Virus genome (UHGV): UHGV-0177896 | Strand: one strand, 5' to 3' | Length of the DNA: 41,409 nucleotides | DNA from: a virus | In this document: in pieces, positions 3,144 to 27,642 of the stretch | How the letters are laid out: each line of letters starts with the position of its first letter | Numbering within the stretch: position 1 is the stretch's first letter | Program-made: the position numbers and the translations under genes | The notes under the pieces: generated by a model | Told to the model about the DNA's origin: nothing | Database searches by the model: none | The model's input: only the letters and a program-made list of their open reading frames with translations

Positions 3144-3964
3144 TATGCAGCTCTCACGATATAATTAAATGCAATATTACGGGGACGCGCGGATACGTAA
3201 GCCCACCAATCATATCTTTGTGCACCTTTGCTGGATGCATCAAATATCCACTTTTTGCCATTTATGGTGTTCCACTGATTGGAGGTAAGACTGTCACCGA
3301 ATCCATAGTTTGCAGAACCCAGCGAACTGATATCCCCTGTATCATTGTCATCAAAGCCGGAAACGATAGTCCCCTCCTGAAATGACAGTATCGTACGCCC
3401 TGAGTCAACCCCGCGCCCGTCATCCCAGCCACGGATAAACTCCCCGCGCAAATCAGGCAGTCTGAGCGACGGATAGGCAAGCGCCAGTTGGGGGTATTGT
3501 GAGGCCGTGAAAGCAGCTCCATTACACTTGAGCCATCCCGCTGGCGGGACGGCAAGAGGCCACGGCACCGGAACGCCAACAGGCAAAGCAGAGCCTTCTC
3601 CCAAACCAAGGTTTTCGAGAGCCGTTTTCACCGTGCCATCCGATTTGATATCACCAAACGGATTCTTGCGGCTCAGGTATTCAACAGCAAACCCCGATCC
3701 CAGCAATTCAACAAAACCGGGCAGATCACCATTATCAAGCACATCCCGTTGCGTTTTATCACTTACAAACTGGGCCAGAGCTGCAGCAATAAAGCTGGCC
3801 TGCCGAATAACCTTATTGACTTGCGCACTGGAGGCTTTCCCTGCTGTAAATCCAGATAAAAGCGCGGGCAACGCTTCCCATTCCTCCTGCGATATAACAT
3901 TGGCTTTTCGATCCGTTGCAAACGCTTTAAAGTCATTTTTCGCCATCAGAGTAATACTCCCCAT
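3143..3964 (-). CDS. Tail-fibre protein (constant N-terminal part plus variable C-terminal part)
   Basis: 273-aa ORF. The crossover site at 3596..3621 lies in-frame and encodes ENLGLGE about 119 codons in. An alternative ATG at 3946 overlaps the upstream stop as ATGA. Confidence 0.75.
3596..3621. repeat. Invertase crossover site, right (hix/gix-like 26 bp)
   Basis: Reads TTCTCCCAAACC AA GGTTTTCGAGAG, containing the AAACCAAGGTTT core typical of Hin/Gin/Pin sites. Inverted partner at 1780..1805. Confidence 0.8.
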
Positions 3965-4626
3965 GCTCCTACATCAAAACCACTGATGAATTCGTTATCC
4001 ATATCAAAACCAAAAAATTTTGAGCCTTCCGATGGGGTTTCCACCGAAGGTGTTTCAATGCCACCCGCCCATACCCCGGCGGCTTTTACTGTGAGATACC
4101 CCTGTTTAATTGCCGCAATTAACTCACGCGATACATCTGAAATATCAGTATCAGGAAAGACCCAGACCGATATCGTCATGTCCTGGTTATCGACTATCTG
4201 CATTCGCAGTCCGGATCCTGCTGTTGCCGCGTCAAGAATTGCCGGAAGCGAATCATTCCGTCCGTCCCAGTTATTAATCGCAATCTTCGCTTTAAGGATG
4301 ACACGATAAGTTTCATCGCTGAGGTACATGTATCCGGAATCAGGATCGTATGGCCCCTGCCATACACCCTGATCATATCCAAGCCCGTCGGTATCCCAGC
4401 TGAAATAAACACCTGAAATAGGCTGGCTGACAACACGGCTACGTCCGATCCACAATCCCAGAATGTCAAGTTGCACACCAACCGCAGAGTCAATATCAAA
4501 TGCAGTAATCAGCCCTCTGGTGGCAGCCGCAACATCAATAAGCGGCCGGGTCATCAGATCAACATGTGCAAGAAATTTAGGTTTGGTGGCGTGGTAGTTC
4601 GTGATTAGTTCGGTGTATTTGCTCAT
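3946..4626 (-). CDS. Baseplate/tail protein (Mu gp48-like, YmfQ-like)
   Basis: 226-aa ORF immediately upstream of the tail fibre and downstream of the J-like baseplate gene. Family assignment from position and general sequence character. Confidence 0.6.
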
Positions 4627-21272: not shown

Positions 21273-22894
21273 CAGGCCTGTCTCCCTAGCAGCTCCCAGA
21301 TGTTCAGGGCTGAATTCATTGGGGCATAGTTGATCATCACCGAGTCGGCAAGGTTTGGCGACCGGGTTTCATCAGGCTGTTTATCAATAACGATTTTTCC
21401 CACACCATTAATGGAATAGGTCGGCTGCGAAAGCTCAATGATGAGTTTATCTTTGAGTGCCATGCTACTGCTGATTGAGATGATTTCGTCCGGGTTGTAA
21501 GCCATACCTTCAACCACAGCGCGCCAGGTATTCTGAAAAAGTTTACGTAACCGCCACCAGCTCTGGGCTTTGGCGTTAGCGAAGAAGTCCTTGTTCAGAC
21601 GTGCGGCTTGCCCGTTGTCCCCGCGAACAGCTTCATCATCCGGATCAAATACCGCGCCACTACCTCGAAACGGTGTGGCAAGTATTGACGGTCGACGCGC
21701 AGCGTTACGCAGTTCGTTGATAGCGCGTGCATCGCCGCGAACGCCAGCGCCCAGCCCGTCCTCATCAAAGCGAAACTCTTCGAGGTTGTCCTGTTCGCAA
21801 AAGCCGAAAACCTTCTCGACGGACTGATAAATGTCGCTGCCCACACCGGACCATTCCCGCACATTTTCCAGGAGGAAGCCATGACGGGTGGAAAAGGCAT
21901 TTTTGTCCCTGCCTTCGTCGGCGACATCCATCGCGCCAAGTCGTTTGCCTGTTGGCTGGATACCCAGTTTGATATGCGCATCAACGGCAGCCTGTACCCA
22001 TTCGGATGGAATCAGAACGCCTTCCGCTGATGCGCTGTAGTTCAGATCAAGTTCCTGTGCCACCACCACCGGATTATCGATTTTCTCGCATTCCCTGCGA
22101 TACCACTCTTCATCCTTGCGAGGATCATCCCGCCAGTGGAATGTGAATACCGGTATCTTCCCGCCATGACGCTTCTGAGCGAACGGGTTAGCCATGCCGT
22201 TAACTGAACTCAGGTCGATACGGCAACGCGTCGTTTGTGACAACGCCGCATCAATCAGCAGAGGACGCTGAAGGAATGCAGCCTCATCAACCAGATAAAG
22301 CGTGGTACGGTCACCACGACCAATATTATCGCCAGCCTCGCCTTTGATAACGGCACCAGTTTCAGGAAACTCAACACGCATATATGGCGCGTGCTTCTTC
22401 TCACTCCACGAACCGCGAAACTCTACAGGTAGCGTTTCCACGAACTTGCGTGCCTTCCAGAACAATGCTTTCGGGTCACCAGTGCTGTCGACGTATTCCT
22501 CTTTACGGGAGCCGAAACCGATAACCATTTCTTTGTTGAAGAGACAAAGCGAGCAGGCCAGTCCGATCGCGGTCCAACTGAGCCCCATTTCACGGGATTT
22601 TTCGGTAATACCATTCTCCCGATTGCCCCAGCGTTCCATAATCCAGTGGATCCACTCCTCCTGCTTAGGGAAGAGTAAAAACGGAATGGTCACCGGCAGG
22701 CCATAATCAATATTACGCGGGTCCGTTGTCATGCCCCAGTCGATGATGAACTGAGCCGGATTGGTTCGGTAAAACTGCTTCAATACGGGCAATATTTCAG
22801 GATTCTGGCGAATGCGCTGTAGGCGTTCCATCCGCCATTCAAAAACCATCTGGTAATCAGGATGTTTAAAATCGAAGGGGAATGGTAACGGCAT
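21272..22894 (-). CDS. Terminase large subunit
   Basis: 540-aa ORF following the small terminase, with an ATPase-type N-terminal half and nuclease-type C-terminal half by general pattern. Confidence 0.8.
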
Positions 22895-22896
22895 AC

Positions 22897-23448
22897 TTAG
22901 CCCATCATTTTTCTATACGCCTCTGCAGCCTGCTCCGGCGTTAAGTTGGTAATTTCTGTTCTGACTGGTCCTCCATCAGCGCCAGTCACTTCATTTTTGA
23001 CGTTGTCTTTAAACGCCTGAACAGAAACATGACGCCCAAGCAACTCAAGGTTTTTAACCTTATCAGGCCATTTGATTTTCTTCAGAAGTGCGGCGCTATC
23101 TGCGGATACCATCTCCACGACATCCATTCCTGATAGCGTTGTGCGCCATACCTTAGGCCAGTCTTTAATGGGCTTTAGCTCACCGTTTTGCAGGAGAATG
23201 TCGAGCACATCCATCTGGTCGATTTCAATAAGGCGATTAAGTACATATTCTGCATTAATACCAACAAGATCATTGCGTTGCGCTTTCAGTTCAGCGATTC
23301 TGAATTGTATGTCAGGTTTTGACAGGTTTTCGGATGCGGTACGGTTAGCTGTCTTTGCGCTGTACCCCGCCCGAATAGCCGCTTGCGTGGCGTTTAAATC
23401 GATGAGGTACTCGCGACAGAACATTTCTTGCTTGTCGGTGAGTGCCAT
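22897..23448 (-). CDS. Terminase small subunit
   Basis: 183-aa ORF. N-terminus [30 protein letters not shown] is a typical terS HTH-type opening. Immediately upstream of terL. Confidence 0.75.
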
Positions 23449-23467
23449 TGATATACCTGAGGAAATT

Positions 23468-24016
23468 ATGAAGTTAGAAGATTTCGCAGCTTATAACCGC
23501 CCTCAATCGAAGGTGTCCGATGAGAGGAAATTTCTTGATTACATTCACAGTCGGAACAGATGGGTTGAGTTTATCAAAAGCATCGATAACGCAAAGCCAG
23601 TATCAATTGCCATGAAAAATTCATTCCATAGTCAATGGGTTGAGTCTGGGGCCTTTATACGTGAAAAGATCAACGACGACTCAATTCTCCTCAAACTATT
23701 AACGCTCTTATTGCCAACATATGATGGTGACAGCCTTGTACTTTATCGGGGGGAAAATAAAGACAGGTTCGATAAAGGGCTCATTGGATTTTGCTGGACA
23801 ACGGACATTTCAGTCGCCGAGAAGTTTGGTCGTGGATTGAATGCATACAAATCACCAGGTTTGCTGTTAAGAGCTGAAGCTCCAGCCTGTTCTATATTAG
23901 CTGGCCCCAATGCCCACAGTCGTTATCTTGGTGAAAATGAGTTCACGGTTAACCCCTCGCGTCTTTCAAACATAACCGTTATTGAAACCTATCCGGACAA
24001 CTCTTTTTTCAAATGA
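23468..24016 (+). CDS. Orphan cargo protein antisense to the late operon; possible ADP-ribosyltransferase-like fold (hypothesis)
   Basis: 182 aa; ATG at 23468 with a GAGG SD 5 nt upstream. Lower GC than its neighbours. Contains LYRG (Arg), FCWTTD (S/T-S/T) and GENEF (ExE) in the order of R-S-E ART motifs. Confidence 0.6.
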   Translation: MKLEDFAAYNRPQSKVSDERKFLDYIHSRNRWVEFIKSIDNAKPVSIAMKNSFHSQWVESGAFIREKINDDSILLKLLTLLLPTYDGDSLVLYRGENKDRFDKGLIGFCWTTDISVAEKFGRGLNAYKSPGLLLRAEAPACSILAGPNAHSRYLGENEFTVNPSRLSNITVIETYPDNSFFK

Positions 24017-24148
24017 TGAATAAATAGATGCCCTATACTTCACCCGCCACTGGTACGCCGTTTCGATGGCCTCCCAGTCCGGTTTTGCCATGAATTTTTC
24101 CTCTTAGTGACATTATCGAAGCCCCTTATCAAAGGAGCTTCTGTAATG

Positions 24149-24334
24149 TCAGTCCCGAACGAACGTAACCTTCGTGTTTGTCGCTCGCCGTACAAGGCGC
24201 GCCGCTTCGCGTTGCATTTCATCGATAACTTTTGGCGTCATCGGCTGATGCGCATATTTACGTTCAATCTCTGCAAAAATCCCGTTCATCGTTTCGCTGT
24301 CTGGTGGGATAACTTTAACGTTTAATCGTGCCAT
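24149..24334 (-). CDS. Small hypothetical protein downstream of the spanins (61 aa)
   Basis: ATG at 24334 (MARLNVKV...) with a weak RBS. A plus-strand ORF 24146..24325 with a strong AAGGAG SD competes for the same DNA, so which is real is unresolved. Confidence 0.3.
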   Translation of the reverse strand: MARLNVKVIPPDSETMNGIFAEIERKYAHQPMTPKVIDEMQREAARLVRRATNTKVTFVRD

Positions 24335-24590
24335 TGGTTTGTGCTGCCCTGTTTTTCTCAAAAGTCCTGATATCAGCCTTATCCCTGTTGCACTGTGCTA
24401 ACGCTGACAACAACGCAACATTCAGGTTAAGGCTAGCTCCCCACGTAAACGGGTCGGGTAAATCTGGCTGGGGTGTTTCATCCGTCAGACTGGCTGGTAA
24501 CGGAACGACCGGCACCGACACGTATACCGTTCGCGTATTCGTGCAACCGCTTAACTGCGCCAGAAGGAACGATACGAACAGCGCAATCAT
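24315..24590 (-). CDS. o-spanin lipoprotein (Rz1-like), overlapped architecture
   Basis: ATG at 24590 in the +1 frame inside Rz. Lipobox LLAQLSGC followed by a Pro-rich segment (VPVVPLPASLTDETPQPDLPDP). Extends past the Rz stop. Confidence 0.65.
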   Translation of the reverse strand: MIALFVSFLLAQLSGCTNTRTVYVSVPVVPLPASLTDETPQPDLPDPFTWGASLNLNVALLSALAQCNRDKADIRTFEKNRAAQTNGTIKR

Positions 24591-24870
24591 CACCCGAAAC
24601 AGCCACTTTGATATCTTCCTGGGTTCTCTGTGACTCCAGTGCGATCTGCTGTTTTGCATGCTGGTTAGCCTCTATAACTGTATTGATGATTTGCAGAGAT
24701 TGCAGGACGTTACTGGTAATGGCTGTTGCAGATTCAGCATTTCGTACAGCCTCATCAGCACGCTCCTTTTCGTGCTGATATTTGCTGTAGTAATGCCCGG
24801 CAGACCAGATAAAAGAACCGATGACGGTAACAAAGAAGGCAACAATAACCAGCTTATATCTCAGCTTCAT
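24478..24870 (-). CDS. i-spanin (Rz-like)
   Basis: 130 aa with an N-terminal TM helix (LVIVAFFVTVIGSFIW) and charged helical periplasmic domain. Directly downstream of the endolysin. Confidence 0.75.
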   Translation of the reverse strand: MKLRYKLVIVAFFVTVIGSFIWSAGHYYSKYQHEKERADEAVRNAESATAITSNVLQSLQIINTVIEANQHAKQQIALESQRTQEDIKVAVSGDDCAVRIVPSGAVKRLHEYANGIRVGAGRSVTSQSDG

Positions 24871-25330
24871 TTACCACCCCACCAGCTTCTTTAAATCGGG
24901 AAATCAGGTCACCGATTCTATGTTCATACTGACCGTAACCTGCACCAGGTAACGACGCCCAGATATTGCTGCACCGGTCGATTGCCTGACGAATATCGCC
25001 GCGGTCAATCATCGGTAAAGCGCCACGCTCTTTAATCTGCTGCAGCGCTACAGCATCCTGACTTTCTGGAGAAAAATCTTTCAGGCCAAGTTGCTTGCGG
25101 TAGGCATCCCACCAGCGTGAAAGAAGCTGGTAACGTCCAGCGGCTGTTGATTTGAGTTTCGGATTTAGCGTGACAAGTTTGCGGGGGTGATCGGAGTAAT
25201 CAGTGAACAGTTCGCCACCGACAATAACATCATAACCGTGATTTCTGGTTTTCTGCCGTCCGTTATCTGTTCCTTCTGACCATGCCACCATATCCAGGAA
25301 AGCTTTACGCTGGGAATTAAGTGTCTGCAT
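24854..25330 (-). CDS. Endolysin (lambda R-like lytic transglycosylase/lysozyme)
   Basis: 158-aa ORF between holin and spanin with a strong AAGGAG SD. Sequence character consistent with the lambda R family. Confidence 0.75.
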   Translation of the reverse strand: MQTLNSQRKAFLDMVAWSEGTDNGRQKTRNHGYDVIVGGELFTDYSDHPRKLVTLNPKLKSTAAGRYQLLSRWWDAYRKQLGLKDFSPESQDAVALQQIKERGALPMIDRGDIRQAIDRCSNIWASLPGAGYGQYEHRIGDLISRFKEAGGVVNEAEI

Positions 25331-25891: not shown

Positions 25892-26053
25892 ATGTCTGAA
25901 AAAAACAAGCCACAAGGTGAAAATAAACCTCAGCAACCCGTGGCACCAAAACCAACTCCAACACAAAGTACTGCAGACTTTGCTACACGTCGTGTTTTTG
26001 TTGGAGATTCTGCCGACTCAGTCATTGAACATATAAAAAAACAGCCGAGATAA
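25892..26053 (+). CDS. Small low-complexity hypothetical protein, convergent with the membrane cargo gene
   Basis: 53 aa (MSEKNKPQGENKPQQPVAPKPTPTQ...) with an AGAGGA SD 6 nt upstream of ATG 25892. Its 3' end overlaps the membrane gene on the opposite strand. Confidence 0.35.
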   Translation: MSEKNKPQGENKPQQPVAPKPTPTQSTADFATRRVFVGDSADSVIEHIKKQPR

Positions 26054-26591
26054 ATATCGCAGCTACCGGAGCAAGGATGGTATACATCCTTGCTTTATCG
26101 AGACTCGTGCGGATTTTCTCATTTTCCAACAGTAACTCTCTTGCTGTATCACTCAAGTCAACAAGGCGATACCTTCGTATAAGCGGCAATAACTTATCAG
26201 GTCCTAAATATCCTGCATCAGCGAATATTTTAAAGCTCGATGGCTCCATATCCTTATATTTTTCATGATATAGATGATCAGGAGGGGCATTGATCAGGCC
26301 CCTAACCTTCACAGATAAACCAGTACATACCAAGTAAATGGCGCACCATGTCCATAGTAATGTAAATGTGGTAATTCCAGCGGTGAGAAAATCGAAATTA
26401 GTTTTCTGTGTCAGCAATAAAAAAGATGAGCCAATTCCAACAATCTGAATGTTCAGAAGTTTGTATCCATTCTCAACATTGGTTTTGTTAGAAAGATGAA
26501 TCTCTCGTATCGTCTCTTCCCCTTGTTTTTCAAGATAATCGACGAGCTCATCATCTACTCCTAAAAAATAATCTTTAGGTAGTTCTCTCAT
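26022..26591 (-). CDS. Hypothetical membrane protein, first gene after PR'/tR' (stx-equivalent cargo slot)
   Basis: 189 aa with a GGAGGTGA SD, a ~45-aa acidic N-terminal domain and about three TM helices. Markedly AT-rich. Sits between the Q terminator and the holin. Confidence 0.6.
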   Translation of the reverse strand: MRELPKDYFLGVDDELVDYLEKQGEETIREIHLSNKTNVENGYKLLNIQIVGIGSSFLLLTQKTNFDFLTAGITTFTLLWTWCAIYLVCTGLSVKVRGLINAPPDHLYHEKYKDMEPSSFKIFADAGYLGPDKLLPLIRRYRLVDLSDTARELLLENEKIRTSLDKARMYTILAPVAAIFISAVFLYVQ

Positions 26592-26787: not shown

Positions 26788-26816
26788 ATTGAAGCAGTTT
26801 ATGCGTAAAAAATCAA
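26788..26816 (-). promoter_or_regulatory. Late promoter PR'-like (-35 TTGATT, 17-bp spacer, -10 TTCAAT) overlapping the Q stop
   Basis: Minus strand reads TTGATT-N17-TTCAAT immediately after the Q gene, with the tR' hairpin a short distance downstream. Same layout as lambda PR'/6S/tR'. Confidence 0.45.
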
Positions 26817-27355
26817 GCTATTTTTTGAGCAAATGATTCTCGCATGGGAATATATAGGGCATACTCAGCAACAGCCAACCAATTAGCAATTCGCTTTTCG
26901 CATGTGCTAAAACACCACTCAGGATGTGCATCATTTAGCAATTCAGCCATTTTGCGCTTAGCCATCCCCCGTCCTTCATACCGTTGCCGGAGGACACTAA
27001 TCAATCCAGGATGCTCTGCCAGCACCTCACTTATGACTCTATCAATACATAACGCCTCTGCATCAGTACAATGCGCCAGCCAGGTCTTTTGCTTGCCATT
27101 GATCATCTCTCGCAAAAACGCTTCCAGCTCAGGTTTCTCTATTCCCGCTTTTTTCATCCTGCGCAGGGCTTCATTGACGGCTGTTTTCGTCAATTTTTGG
27201 GATGCCAGCAACTGGTTAAACATATTTCCCGTCTTACCGCCGCCAATATACGACCAGCGCCCCCACATGCGCAGTTTTCCCTGAATCCAGACACTTTCCA
27301 GCGTGGTGAGACGAAGGTGTTCCCCGCTTTTGCCTGTATTTGTTGGGTAAATCAT
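26813..27355 (-). CDS. Late-gene antiterminator Q
   Basis: 180 aa from ATG 27355 (MIYPTNTG...) with a GGAGAAAGG SD. Last gene before the PR'/tR' signals and the lysis cassette. Start overlaps the upstream stop as ATGA. Confidence 0.65.
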   Translation of the reverse strand: MIYPTNTGKSGEHLRLTTLESVWIQGKLRMWGRWSYIGGGKTGNMFNQLLASQKLTKTAVNEALRRMKKAGIEKPELEAFLREMINGKQKTWLAHCTDAEALCIDRVISEVLAEHPGLISVLRQRYEGRGMAKRKMAELLNDAHPEWCFSTCEKRIANWLAVAEYALYIPMRESFAQKIA

Positions 27356-27642
27356 AAATAACCTTCCTTTCTCCAGATTTCTTGTGTGCGAAAAACACCT
27401 TCTGCATGCATCAGGCGTAATTCTTCTTTGGTGTAATCGCTGGTTTTTACCCGCCCGTCGATTAAATCGTGGCATGAGCTGCAGGCAATCGCTGCCTGCA
27501 TATCGTGTGGTTTTGTCGCTGTTCCGCACGTCCCCGCCAACCTGTAATGCGCCAGCACAGAAGTTTCGGGATTGTGATTGCAGTAGCCAGAAATTCTGAC
27601 GGTGCACATCTGCCCCCGCGCCGCTTTACGTAAATCCACCAT
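27352..27642 (-). CDS. YbcO-like protein (DUF1364; putative Zn-binding nuclease of nin regions)
   Basis: 96 aa: MVDLRKAARGQMCTVRISGYCNHNPETSVLAHYRLAGTCGTATKP...IACSSCHD, a Cys/His pattern remembered from YbcO of DLP12-type nin regions. Immediately upstream of Q. Confidence 0.55.
   Translation of the reverse strand: MVDLRKAARGQMCTVRISGYCNHNPETSVLAHYRLAGTCGTATKPHDMQAAIACSSCHDLIDGRVKTSDYTKEELRLMHAEGVFRTQEIWRKEGYL

Follow-up and report, generated by a model that had tools for sequence, protein, structure and literature searches.

The window analysed here, the whole 41,409-nucleotide (nt) stretch of the UHGV virus genome UHGV-0177896, is a Rac/lambda-like Escherichia coli prophage. In the gap between its lysis and terminase genes lies a plus-strand gene for a protein of 182 amino acids (aa), which we studied as a putative ADP-ribosyltransferase (ART). 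The gene belongs to a large family found on phages and other mobile elements, sits in an exchangeable cargo slot beside terS and has no conserved partner. Its product is predicted to adopt an ART fold with a near-invariant arginine, hydroxyl and Glu-x-Glu (ExE) site, from which catalysis is likely.

The ART-like gene and its locus

The features to which we refer below are as follows (ORF, open reading frame; column counts were made over 122 relatives, 24-50% identical to the query).

23468-24016, plus strand: ART-like gene, 182 aa (ATG at 23468, TGA ending at 24016); protein identical to WP_000762846.1, 'hypothetical protein'
23468-23731, plus strand: predicted N-terminal all-helical domain, residues 1-88 (DSSP of the model, column counts)
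23732-23995, plus strand: predicted minimal six-strand ART-like core, residues 89-176
23747-23749, plus strand: codon for R94, in [YF]-R-G-[ED], strand 1 (column counts)
23795-23800, plus strand: codons for W110-T111, in G-x-[CSA]-W-[TS], where strand 2 ends and a helix follows (column counts)
23933-23941, plus strand: codons for E156-N157-E158, the ExE motif at the start of strand 5 (E156, 23933-23935; E158, 23939-23941)
23459-23463, plus strand: Shine-Dalgarno site GAGGA, 4 nt 5' of the ATG (sequence)
23449-23467, no strand: 19-nt spacer that separates the start codons of the two divergent genes, terS and the cargo gene (sequence)
22897-23448, minus strand: terS (Terminase_2; Pfam E 7e-40), the divergent neighbour
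23485-24058, no strand: exchangeable cassette, without homology to E. coli TB06053, with which the flanks are shared (blastn breakpoints)
24040-24151, minus strand: remnant of another terS type (5' end with the region upstream), a mosaic junction right of the cassette
24149-24334, minus strand: 61-aa ORF, the convergent neighbour, a close homologue of WP_000113285.1/WP_000113283.1 (annotated in RefSeq)

A sequence-only reading of this DNA had described the gene as a plus-strand ORF in the lysis/terminase gap, opposed to the late operon, with a Shine-Dalgarno site of its own and a start codon 19 nt from that of terS; the coordinates agree on each point. The minus strand holds every other long ORF between about 2.5 and 28 kb of the window, so the ART-like gene is antisense to the late operon, and the late transcript must cross it to reach terS. 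The late genes comprise holin, lysozyme, Rz, Terminase_2 terS, terL and portal, with a Pin-type invertase at the tail-fibre end. The window also encodes RecE/RecT, a YdaT-like protein, a cI-type helix-turn-helix protein and a Q-type antiterminator. The 61-aa ORF overlaps the end of the spanin region, and a purine-rich counterpart of the GAGGA site is present in the aligned homologous loci. The guanine-cytosine (GC) content of the ART ORF is, as that reading had it, below that of its neighbours (0.424, against 0.469 in terS, 0.522 in terL, 0.48-0.49 in the lysis genes and 0.493 in the window), a drop that is real but modest.

We made two side observations in this region. The palindrome CCTGAGG in the spacer (23453-23463) provides the plus-strand gene with GAGG and terS with AGG; its lack of conservation in more distant loci makes it probably incidental. 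A 189-aa ORF (26022-26591, minus strand) has the lowest GC of the region (0.384) and hydrophobic stretches suggesting membrane segments, and it matches nothing in Pfam or PADLOC. It is flanked by the Q-type antiterminator (26813-27607) and the holin, where Stx phages have their Stx genes, and is probably a further moron, encoded on the same strand as the late operon.

Family, predicted fold and active site

The gene had been called an orphan, which proved wrong. A word-indexed search found 49 clusters at 90% identity, with relatives down to 37% identity, and an exhaustive profile search yielded 1,008 representatives of clusters at 50% identity (E<=1e-3), 108 of them below 1e-30. At least 1,000 Enterobacteriaceae contigs (E. 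coli, Salmonella and Enterobacter) encode exactly this protein, which is named 'hypothetical protein' in every source. Against a 72%-identical homologue (locus L031), the ratio of nonsynonymous to synonymous substitution rates (dN/dS) is 0.14; by this comparison of sequences, the gene is real and under purifying selection.

All members are free-standing proteins of 160-270 aa. In none of the family searches did the domain turn up as the terminal part of an Rhs protein or another polymorphic toxin, and a further database search, using the profile of alignment A2, returned no fused architectures and no informative names. A tblastn search of 50,697 deposited phage genomes gave no family match; its known phage sources are prophages and metagenomic viral contigs alone. 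Individual sequences depart from the common form. P0168 consists of two tandem copies of the complete two-domain unit, each of which has lost the first Glu of ExE and kept the second, and P0173 has a ParB_N-like segment fused ahead of the family domain. Split tblastn matches revealed frameshifted gene copies on two viral contigs (L047, 6001-6545, and L038, 5150-5673), which to judge from the sequences are occasional pseudogenes or assembly errors.

Nearly all annotation resources are silent on this protein. The query had no match in Pfam or NCBIfam at E<=10, and PADLOC-DB 2.0 returned only RT_UG26 (E 0.024, over the N-terminal helices), which we judged a chance match. In PHROGs it falls in phrog_30882, of 'unknown function'. 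We found no paper that mentions WP_000762846, no description of the family in the literature on prophage and phage ARTs, and no report of the gene's expression; a paper on the prophage small RNA svsR concerns the cI region and is unrelated to this gene. No paper or database entry that we found assigns the family a function.

The column counts single out a small set of residues. Only R94, G107 and W110 are fully invariant (122/122), followed by G95 and T/S111 (each 121/122), E156 (119/122), and E/D96 and [YF]93 (each 118/122). The E158 column holds 109 E and 8 Q among the 122 sequences, and H150 and S151 are kept in 101/122 and 90/122, respectively. The family signature is [YF]-R-G-[ED] ... G-x-[CSA]-W-[TS] ... 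H-S-x-x-L-x-E-x-E. The three motifs picked out earlier from the single sequence (LVLYRG, GFCWTTD and YLGENEF) are present in order and coincide with the most conserved columns, which makes them more than a chance pattern, and the spacing from R94 to T111 is 17 residues, as first counted.

We modelled the protein with AlphaFold2 from a 41-sequence alignment and assigned secondary structure by DSSP. The mean predicted local distance difference test (pLDDT) score was 91.6 and the predicted template modelling (pTM) score 0.83. In the model, an N-terminal domain of five helices (residues about 3-81) precedes an alpha/beta domain with strands at 90-97, 109-111, 131-138, 143-145, 158-161 and 167-175. 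Conserved residues associated with the N-terminal domain are W32, W57, G61, R65, D71, L78, P83, Y85 and G87. The alpha/beta domain shows the split beta-sheet core by which ARTs bind nicotinamide adenine dinucleotide (NAD+).

Structure searches with the model retrieved almost only ART-fold proteins. The fold-comparison figures, which carry no label, were 6.8 for KptA/Tpt1, 6.6 for TreX, 6.1 for BC2332, 6.0 for Vis, 5.9 for both ART2.2 and TreTu, and 5.8 for AcrF11. In Foldseek against the PDB, the top 50 matches were all ART-fold, with weak statistics (best E 0.019, TM score ~0.3), and a viral structure library returned mostly unnamed proteins together with DarT, ART-PolyVal and NAD-arginine ART. 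The sequence-only reading had proposed the ART-like arrangement of arginine, hydroxyl pair and ExE, to be checked by profile and structure comparison. The structural part came out in its favour, with match lists almost purely of ART proteins, and the profile part did not, as no Pfam ART-clan family matched. On the strength of the model, the ART fold class is well indicated, and the family appears distant from every solved ART.

In the model, R94 lies on strand 1, T111 at the end of strand 2, and ExE in the loop entering strand 5, which starts at 158. With residue equivalences to known ARTs inferred from secondary-structure order, the predicted order and placement of the motifs are the same as those of R, S-T-S and [QE]-x-E in the cholera-toxin-like (R-S-E) clade, for which we used published definitions (PMC9503650). 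Because the arginine, hydroxyl and ExE columns stay near-invariant at ~25% identity, a catalytic site is to be expected rather than a scaffold. From this site and the predicted ART core, we consider catalysis likely.

An exchangeable cargo slot and a stand-alone gene

The gene's place beside terS is an exchangeable cargo slot, not a fixed gene pair. In a blastn comparison with E. coli TB06053 (L056), window positions 22800-23484 and 24059-24900 align at 96%. Homology stops at 23484 and resumes at 24059, so 23485-24058 is an exchanged cassette. In TB06053, a 151-aa gene (3575-4030, plus strand) lies there instead, 22 nt from terS, in a setting where terS and terL are 96-97% identical to ours. 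E. coli strain 12089 (L055) has a 90-aa gene (3577-3849, plus strand) 24 nt from a 97% identical terS/terL module, and Cronobacter phage phiES15 (L014) an unannotated 72-aa ORF (3277-3495, plus strand) 21 nt from terS. These 72-, 90- and 151-aa genes match nothing in Pfam or PADLOC and are candidate conflict genes in their own right.

The same arrangement recurs well beyond E. coli. The ART-like gene is paired head to head with a Terminase_2 terS in loci where the ART protein is 43-84% and terS 59-78% identical (Pantoea prophage L004 and viral contigs L029-L031 and L034-L036), with starts 19-21 nt apart. In every terS-linked locus examined, whatever the cargo, the start-to-start spacing is 19-24 nt. 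Among 5,426 complete E. coli genomes, 91 carry the gene (>=98% identity), always on the chromosome, and enteropathogenic E. coli (EPEC) E2348/69 and E. coli B/BL21 are among the carriers; a matching terS is present in 193. Present in some prophages and absent from others, at one and the same site whose flanks are conserved, the gene behaves as a prophage moron, and the earlier suggestion of acquired cargo is upheld by the unrelated genes that near-identical prophages hold in this slot.

Two features of the flanks stand out. Across seven loci, the first ~50 nt of terS (window 23400-23448; columns 100-149 of alignment A3) are nearly invariant in DNA, synonymous sites included. The terS proteins of these loci are ~59-78% identical, and the rest of terS varies normally. 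This invariance may reflect an element common to the loci that acts in regulation or recombination. Candidates are a linker for recombination, an RNA element or translation-initiation signal serving terS, and the control region of the divergent cargo gene. To the right of the cassette, the remnant at 24040-24151 matches the region of the terS start in Klebsiella phages GZ7, Chronis and RCIP at 82-85% identity, and a 41-aa ORF (23966-24091, minus strand) begins inside this remnant region. These alignments suggest that recombination within that terS start exchanged an older packaging module for the present ART-terS-terL module.

In BL21, the gene is intact and 100% identical, together with terS and terL, within a decayed prophage at att-lambda between ybhC and ybhB/bioA (L049; NZ_CP060121.1, about 748.5-760 kb). 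This prophage keeps int, xis and a few early genes intact, as well as an Rz1-like gene (lysC), the 61-aa ORF, the ART-like gene, terS and terL. Its truncated portal gene is annotated as a pseudogene for an 'anti-CBASS protein Acb1 family protein' (CBASS, cyclic-oligonucleotide-based anti-phage signalling system), which looks like a misannotation.

Away from terS, relatives occupy varied settings. In high-GC Pseudomonas-type lambdoid phages, they lie between the replication and lysis modules and are co-directional with both, as in L040, where the order is DnaB, ART gene, ParA-like ATPase, lysozyme and Rz. Others are found in co-directional arrays of small unknown genes adjoining integrases (L007, L009/L010), or themselves adjoin integrases or transposases (L003, L011, L050-L052). 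One lies beside Abi_2 and AlpA (L012), and another adjoins a SLFN_AlbA_2 protein in an integrase island. Conjugative or mobilisable plasmids also carry relatives: the Pandoraea apista plasmid pPA35 (L058) has two family matches, at least one of them inside a long co-directional array of small genes that resembles a plasmid leading or establishment region. One relative in Methylomonas has an ordinary chromosomal setting.

In two loci, the neighbour is itself informative. A gene of the Acb2/Tad1-hairpin family adjoins the ART homologue between the lysis genes and terS in a Pantoea prophage (L004/L005, 6638-6919, minus strand), and likewise adjoins it in L035 (2415-2648). The proteins of this family are anti-CBASS and anti-Thoeris sponges, and such a neighbour shows that in some phages, at least, the lysis/terS gap is a site of anti-defence genes.

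The gene stands alone, without a conserved partner. The sequence-only reading had noted no antitoxin-like gene next to it, and the comparison of loci extends this: the neighbours in ~15 independent contexts share no homologous gene, the upstream and downstream neighbours in 10 loci have no mutual similarity, and the neighbours tested have no antitoxin-like Pfam domain. We rejected two candidate partners. The 177-aa upstream gene in L052 is not a paralogue and has no ParB match. The 61-aa ORF, considered as an antitoxin, travels with the lysis flank and not with the ART-like gene: it lies beside other cargo in L056 and is absent from the Pantoea and other ART loci. It has no Pfam or PADLOC match.

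Possible roles and comparison with known systems

We tentatively propose that the protein is a target-specific ART of the R-S-E type, serving as an anti-defence or host-modifying effector to the benefit of the mobile element that carries it. R94 and T111 would hold NAD+, and the Glu pair at the start of strand 5 would activate ribose C1''. The ADP-ribose would then go to one specific macromolecule. We propose an arginine acceptor because the motif is ExE and not QxE; by analogy with ExE enzymes, protein arginine is most likely. The helical N-terminal domain (residues 1-88) probably supplies target recognition, and it may also serve regulation. Since no immunity partner accompanies the gene, the target is unlikely to be an essential part of the housekeeping machinery, and stable carriage in this state argues for a target that is both narrow and non-essential. 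Transcription would run from inside terS against the late operon, so that expression may be independent of virion production.

We favour an anti-defence or host-modifying role for several reasons. The family is spread over phages, elements resembling integrative and conjugative elements (ICEs), and plasmids. In some phages it is co-directional with lytic genes, and in some an Acb2 gene is its neighbour. The alternatives in the slot are small single genes, and the protein has no PADLOC match. T4 Mod enzymes and AcrIF11 are the functional analogues that we have in mind.

Several results weigh against this proposal. No plus-strand sigma-70 promoter was found in 22800-24800; manual inspection gave weak candidates only, including TTGACA at 23318-23323 without a matching -10 element. 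The hairpin and U-run after the stop codon are no better than in shuffled sequences (z -0.18). The strand-2 motif is [CSA]109-W110-[TS]111 and not S-T-S, with one hydroxyl conserved and Trp invariant. Profile methods gave no link to a curated ART family. Pfam searches with the 122 relatives and the longest members matched no ART family; a single sub-threshold DRAT match (E 0.11) appeared in 1 of the 122. None of the curated ART families (ART, ADPrib_exo_Tox, Enterotoxin_a, PARP, DarT, RES, PTS_2-RNA, ART-PolyVal and ModA PF26816, and those of NCBIfam) was reached at the gathering threshold. Sequence profile searches of the PDB with alignments A1 and A2 found no ART; their matches to triosephosphate isomerase and protein A, against ragged N-termini, were spurious. 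Comparison of the family by hhalign with T4 ModA, ModB and a 4-sequence Mod alignment gave probabilities <1%; the search to deepen the ModA profile had yielded 3 proteins only. The best local alignment with ModA pairs LYRGE with LWRGV and WT..VAEMFARGLN with SAS..IALHFASGLE, which is suggestive only. Finally, the antisense orientation, the retention in BL21 and the Abi_2 and SLFN_AlbA_2 neighbours fit a defence function expressed in the lysogen equally well.

Such a defence or superinfection-exclusion function, in which an ART made by the lysogen modifies a phage or host target and aborts infection by another phage, is a possible though less probable explanation. Lambda-type morons and CmdT/DarT-like effectors are single-protein analogues. 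This role would suit a gene that runs antisense to the late operon and lies, in the manner of bor and LT-II, between Rz and terS. Its survival, intact and unchanged, in the heavily decayed BL21 prophage also fits. Relatives adjoin Abi_2 and AlpA, or a SLFN_AlbA_2 protein, in integrase islands, and L007 has a weak HEPN-like neighbour. However, no PADLOC model matches, and the gene lacks the antitoxin or sensor partner that known ART defence toxins (DarTG, CmdTAC) require. The co-directionality with lytic genes in Pseudomonas-type phages, the small-gene arrays on plasmids and ICEs, which are typical of establishment genes, and the very small proteins that replace the ART in the slot also speak against it.

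We think it unlikely that the ART fold serves another chemistry here. The options are an NAD+ glycohydrolase or phosphorylase (Tse6/Tne2/RES-like), an ART acting on nucleic acid (DarT, Scabin/pierisin or CmdT-like), or a phosphotransferase of the Tpt1/KptA type that acts on the ends of RNA or DNA. The last is opposed by an R in place of the H of the Tpt1 HGT motif and by an N-lobe that is all-helical and not a winged helix. The ExE pair is typical of protein-arginine ARTs in the R-S-E clade. Toxicity would be expected of an NADase that had neither regulation nor immunity, yet the 91 genomes and the many contigs noted above carry the gene stably. More doubtful still is a non-enzymatic protein, either a degenerate ART-like binding scaffold (a sponge or stoichiometric inhibitor) or a false-positive fold from a weak match. 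Against the scaffold stands the near-invariance of R, hydroxyl and Glu-x-Glu across ~25%-identical relatives; against the false positive stand fold match lists that hold almost purely ART proteins and not mixed folds.

The head-to-head arrangement with terS could have a meaning of its own. The mutually antisense transcripts and the ultra-conserved terS start would then form a regulatory unit, and the enzyme would modify the terminase or disarm host immune sensors that recognise the terminase or portal. We regard this as quite improbable for the present gene. Iyer et al. 2022 (PMC9503650) raised the packaging-coupling idea for terminase-linked phage ARTs generally. If true, an ART coupled to packaging would be the first enzymatic counter-measure tied to DNA packaging.

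A eukaryote-directed toxin moron is the most far-fetched possibility: LT-II genes and other ART toxins do adjoin terminase genes in coliphages (PMC9503650, PMC3252337), at the lysis/terminase position of lambdoid prophages, and the active site is of the cholera-toxin type, but the N-terminus is hydrophilic (MKLEDFAAYNRPQSK...) with no signal peptide, no B-subunit or delivery gene lies nearby, and soil and water bacteria, methanotrophs and Pseudomonas-type phages all carry relatives.

For a large unannotated family (~1,000 clusters at 50% identity), the proposal offers a biochemical hypothesis that can be tested and that names the catalytic residues. Presence in two heavily used strains, E. coli B/BL21 and EPEC E2348/69, makes knock-outs, ADP-ribose blots and phage-panel assays feasible. 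The locus also points to a defined cargo slot beside terS that holds other candidate conflict genes.

Among known systems, lambdoid morons (lambda bor, the LT-II genes) share the position, the variable presence in near-identical prophages and the lower GC. Lambda bor also lies on the opposite strand; bor is expressed in the lysogen. Unlike these morons, the ART slot is precisely fixed, 19-24 nt head to head with terS, and takes interchangeable plus-strand genes; neither promoter nor terminator was identified for the ART-like gene by the sigma-70 scan or the hairpin shuffles. That phage ARTs adjoin terminase genes is a noted trend (PMC9503650), and the genes for LT-II toxins are similarly placed (PMC9503650, PMC3252337).

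Other ART systems differ more. ART toxin-antitoxin and immunity modules (DarTG, ParST, RES-Xre, CmdTAC, Tre1-Tri1, TreTu-TriTu) have an adjacent partner, which our family lacks. The small Rhs/T6SS ART toxins TreX and TreTu (8s2m, 7zhl) and effectors of the Tre1/Tse6 type form the C-terminal part of polymorphic toxins and have their immunity gene alongside, whereas the family is always free-standing, at 160-270 aa, with no conserved neighbour. Tpt1/KptA enzymes (9ld3, 1wfx, 8tg4) are marked by an NAD+ lobe of the H-H-h type, an Arg-His-Arg-Arg tetrad and a winged-helix RNA lobe. Compared with them, the family has Arg for the His of the HGT motif on strand 1 and an all-helical in place of a winged-helix N-lobe, and no PTS_2-RNA Pfam match.

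The closest likeness in the predicted active site is to the R-S-E ARTs (Vis, 4xzj; ART2.2, 1gxy; C3, 1r45; T4 ModA/ModB/Alt), with which the family shares an aromatic-Arg at strand 1 and E-x-E at strand 5. It has no profile-level similarity to any curated family, ModA PF26816 included, and its core has six strands only and a short segment (HSxxLG) like the ADP-ribosylating turn-turn (ARTT) loop. Relative to classic R-S-E enzymes, its R-to-hydroxyl spacing is short, an invariant Trp takes the place of the central Thr of S-T-S, and the first Glu is the more invariant one of the ExE pair.

In its proposed way of life, the family resembles AcrIF11 (6kyf), a stand-alone, highly specific ART of mobile elements that is active in lysogens and has a helical region proposed for target recognition (PMC12421852). 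The key residues of AcrIF11 are a diphtheria-like H-F-H-D (PMC12421852), whereas the family uses R/[ST]/ExE. The two differ in size (about 130 aa for AcrIF11, 160-190 aa for the family), have no sequence relationship, and our protein does not fall within the AcrIF11 family. If active and target-specific, the ART described here would be a cholera-toxin-type counterpart to AcrIF11 among the stand-alone ARTs of mobile elements.

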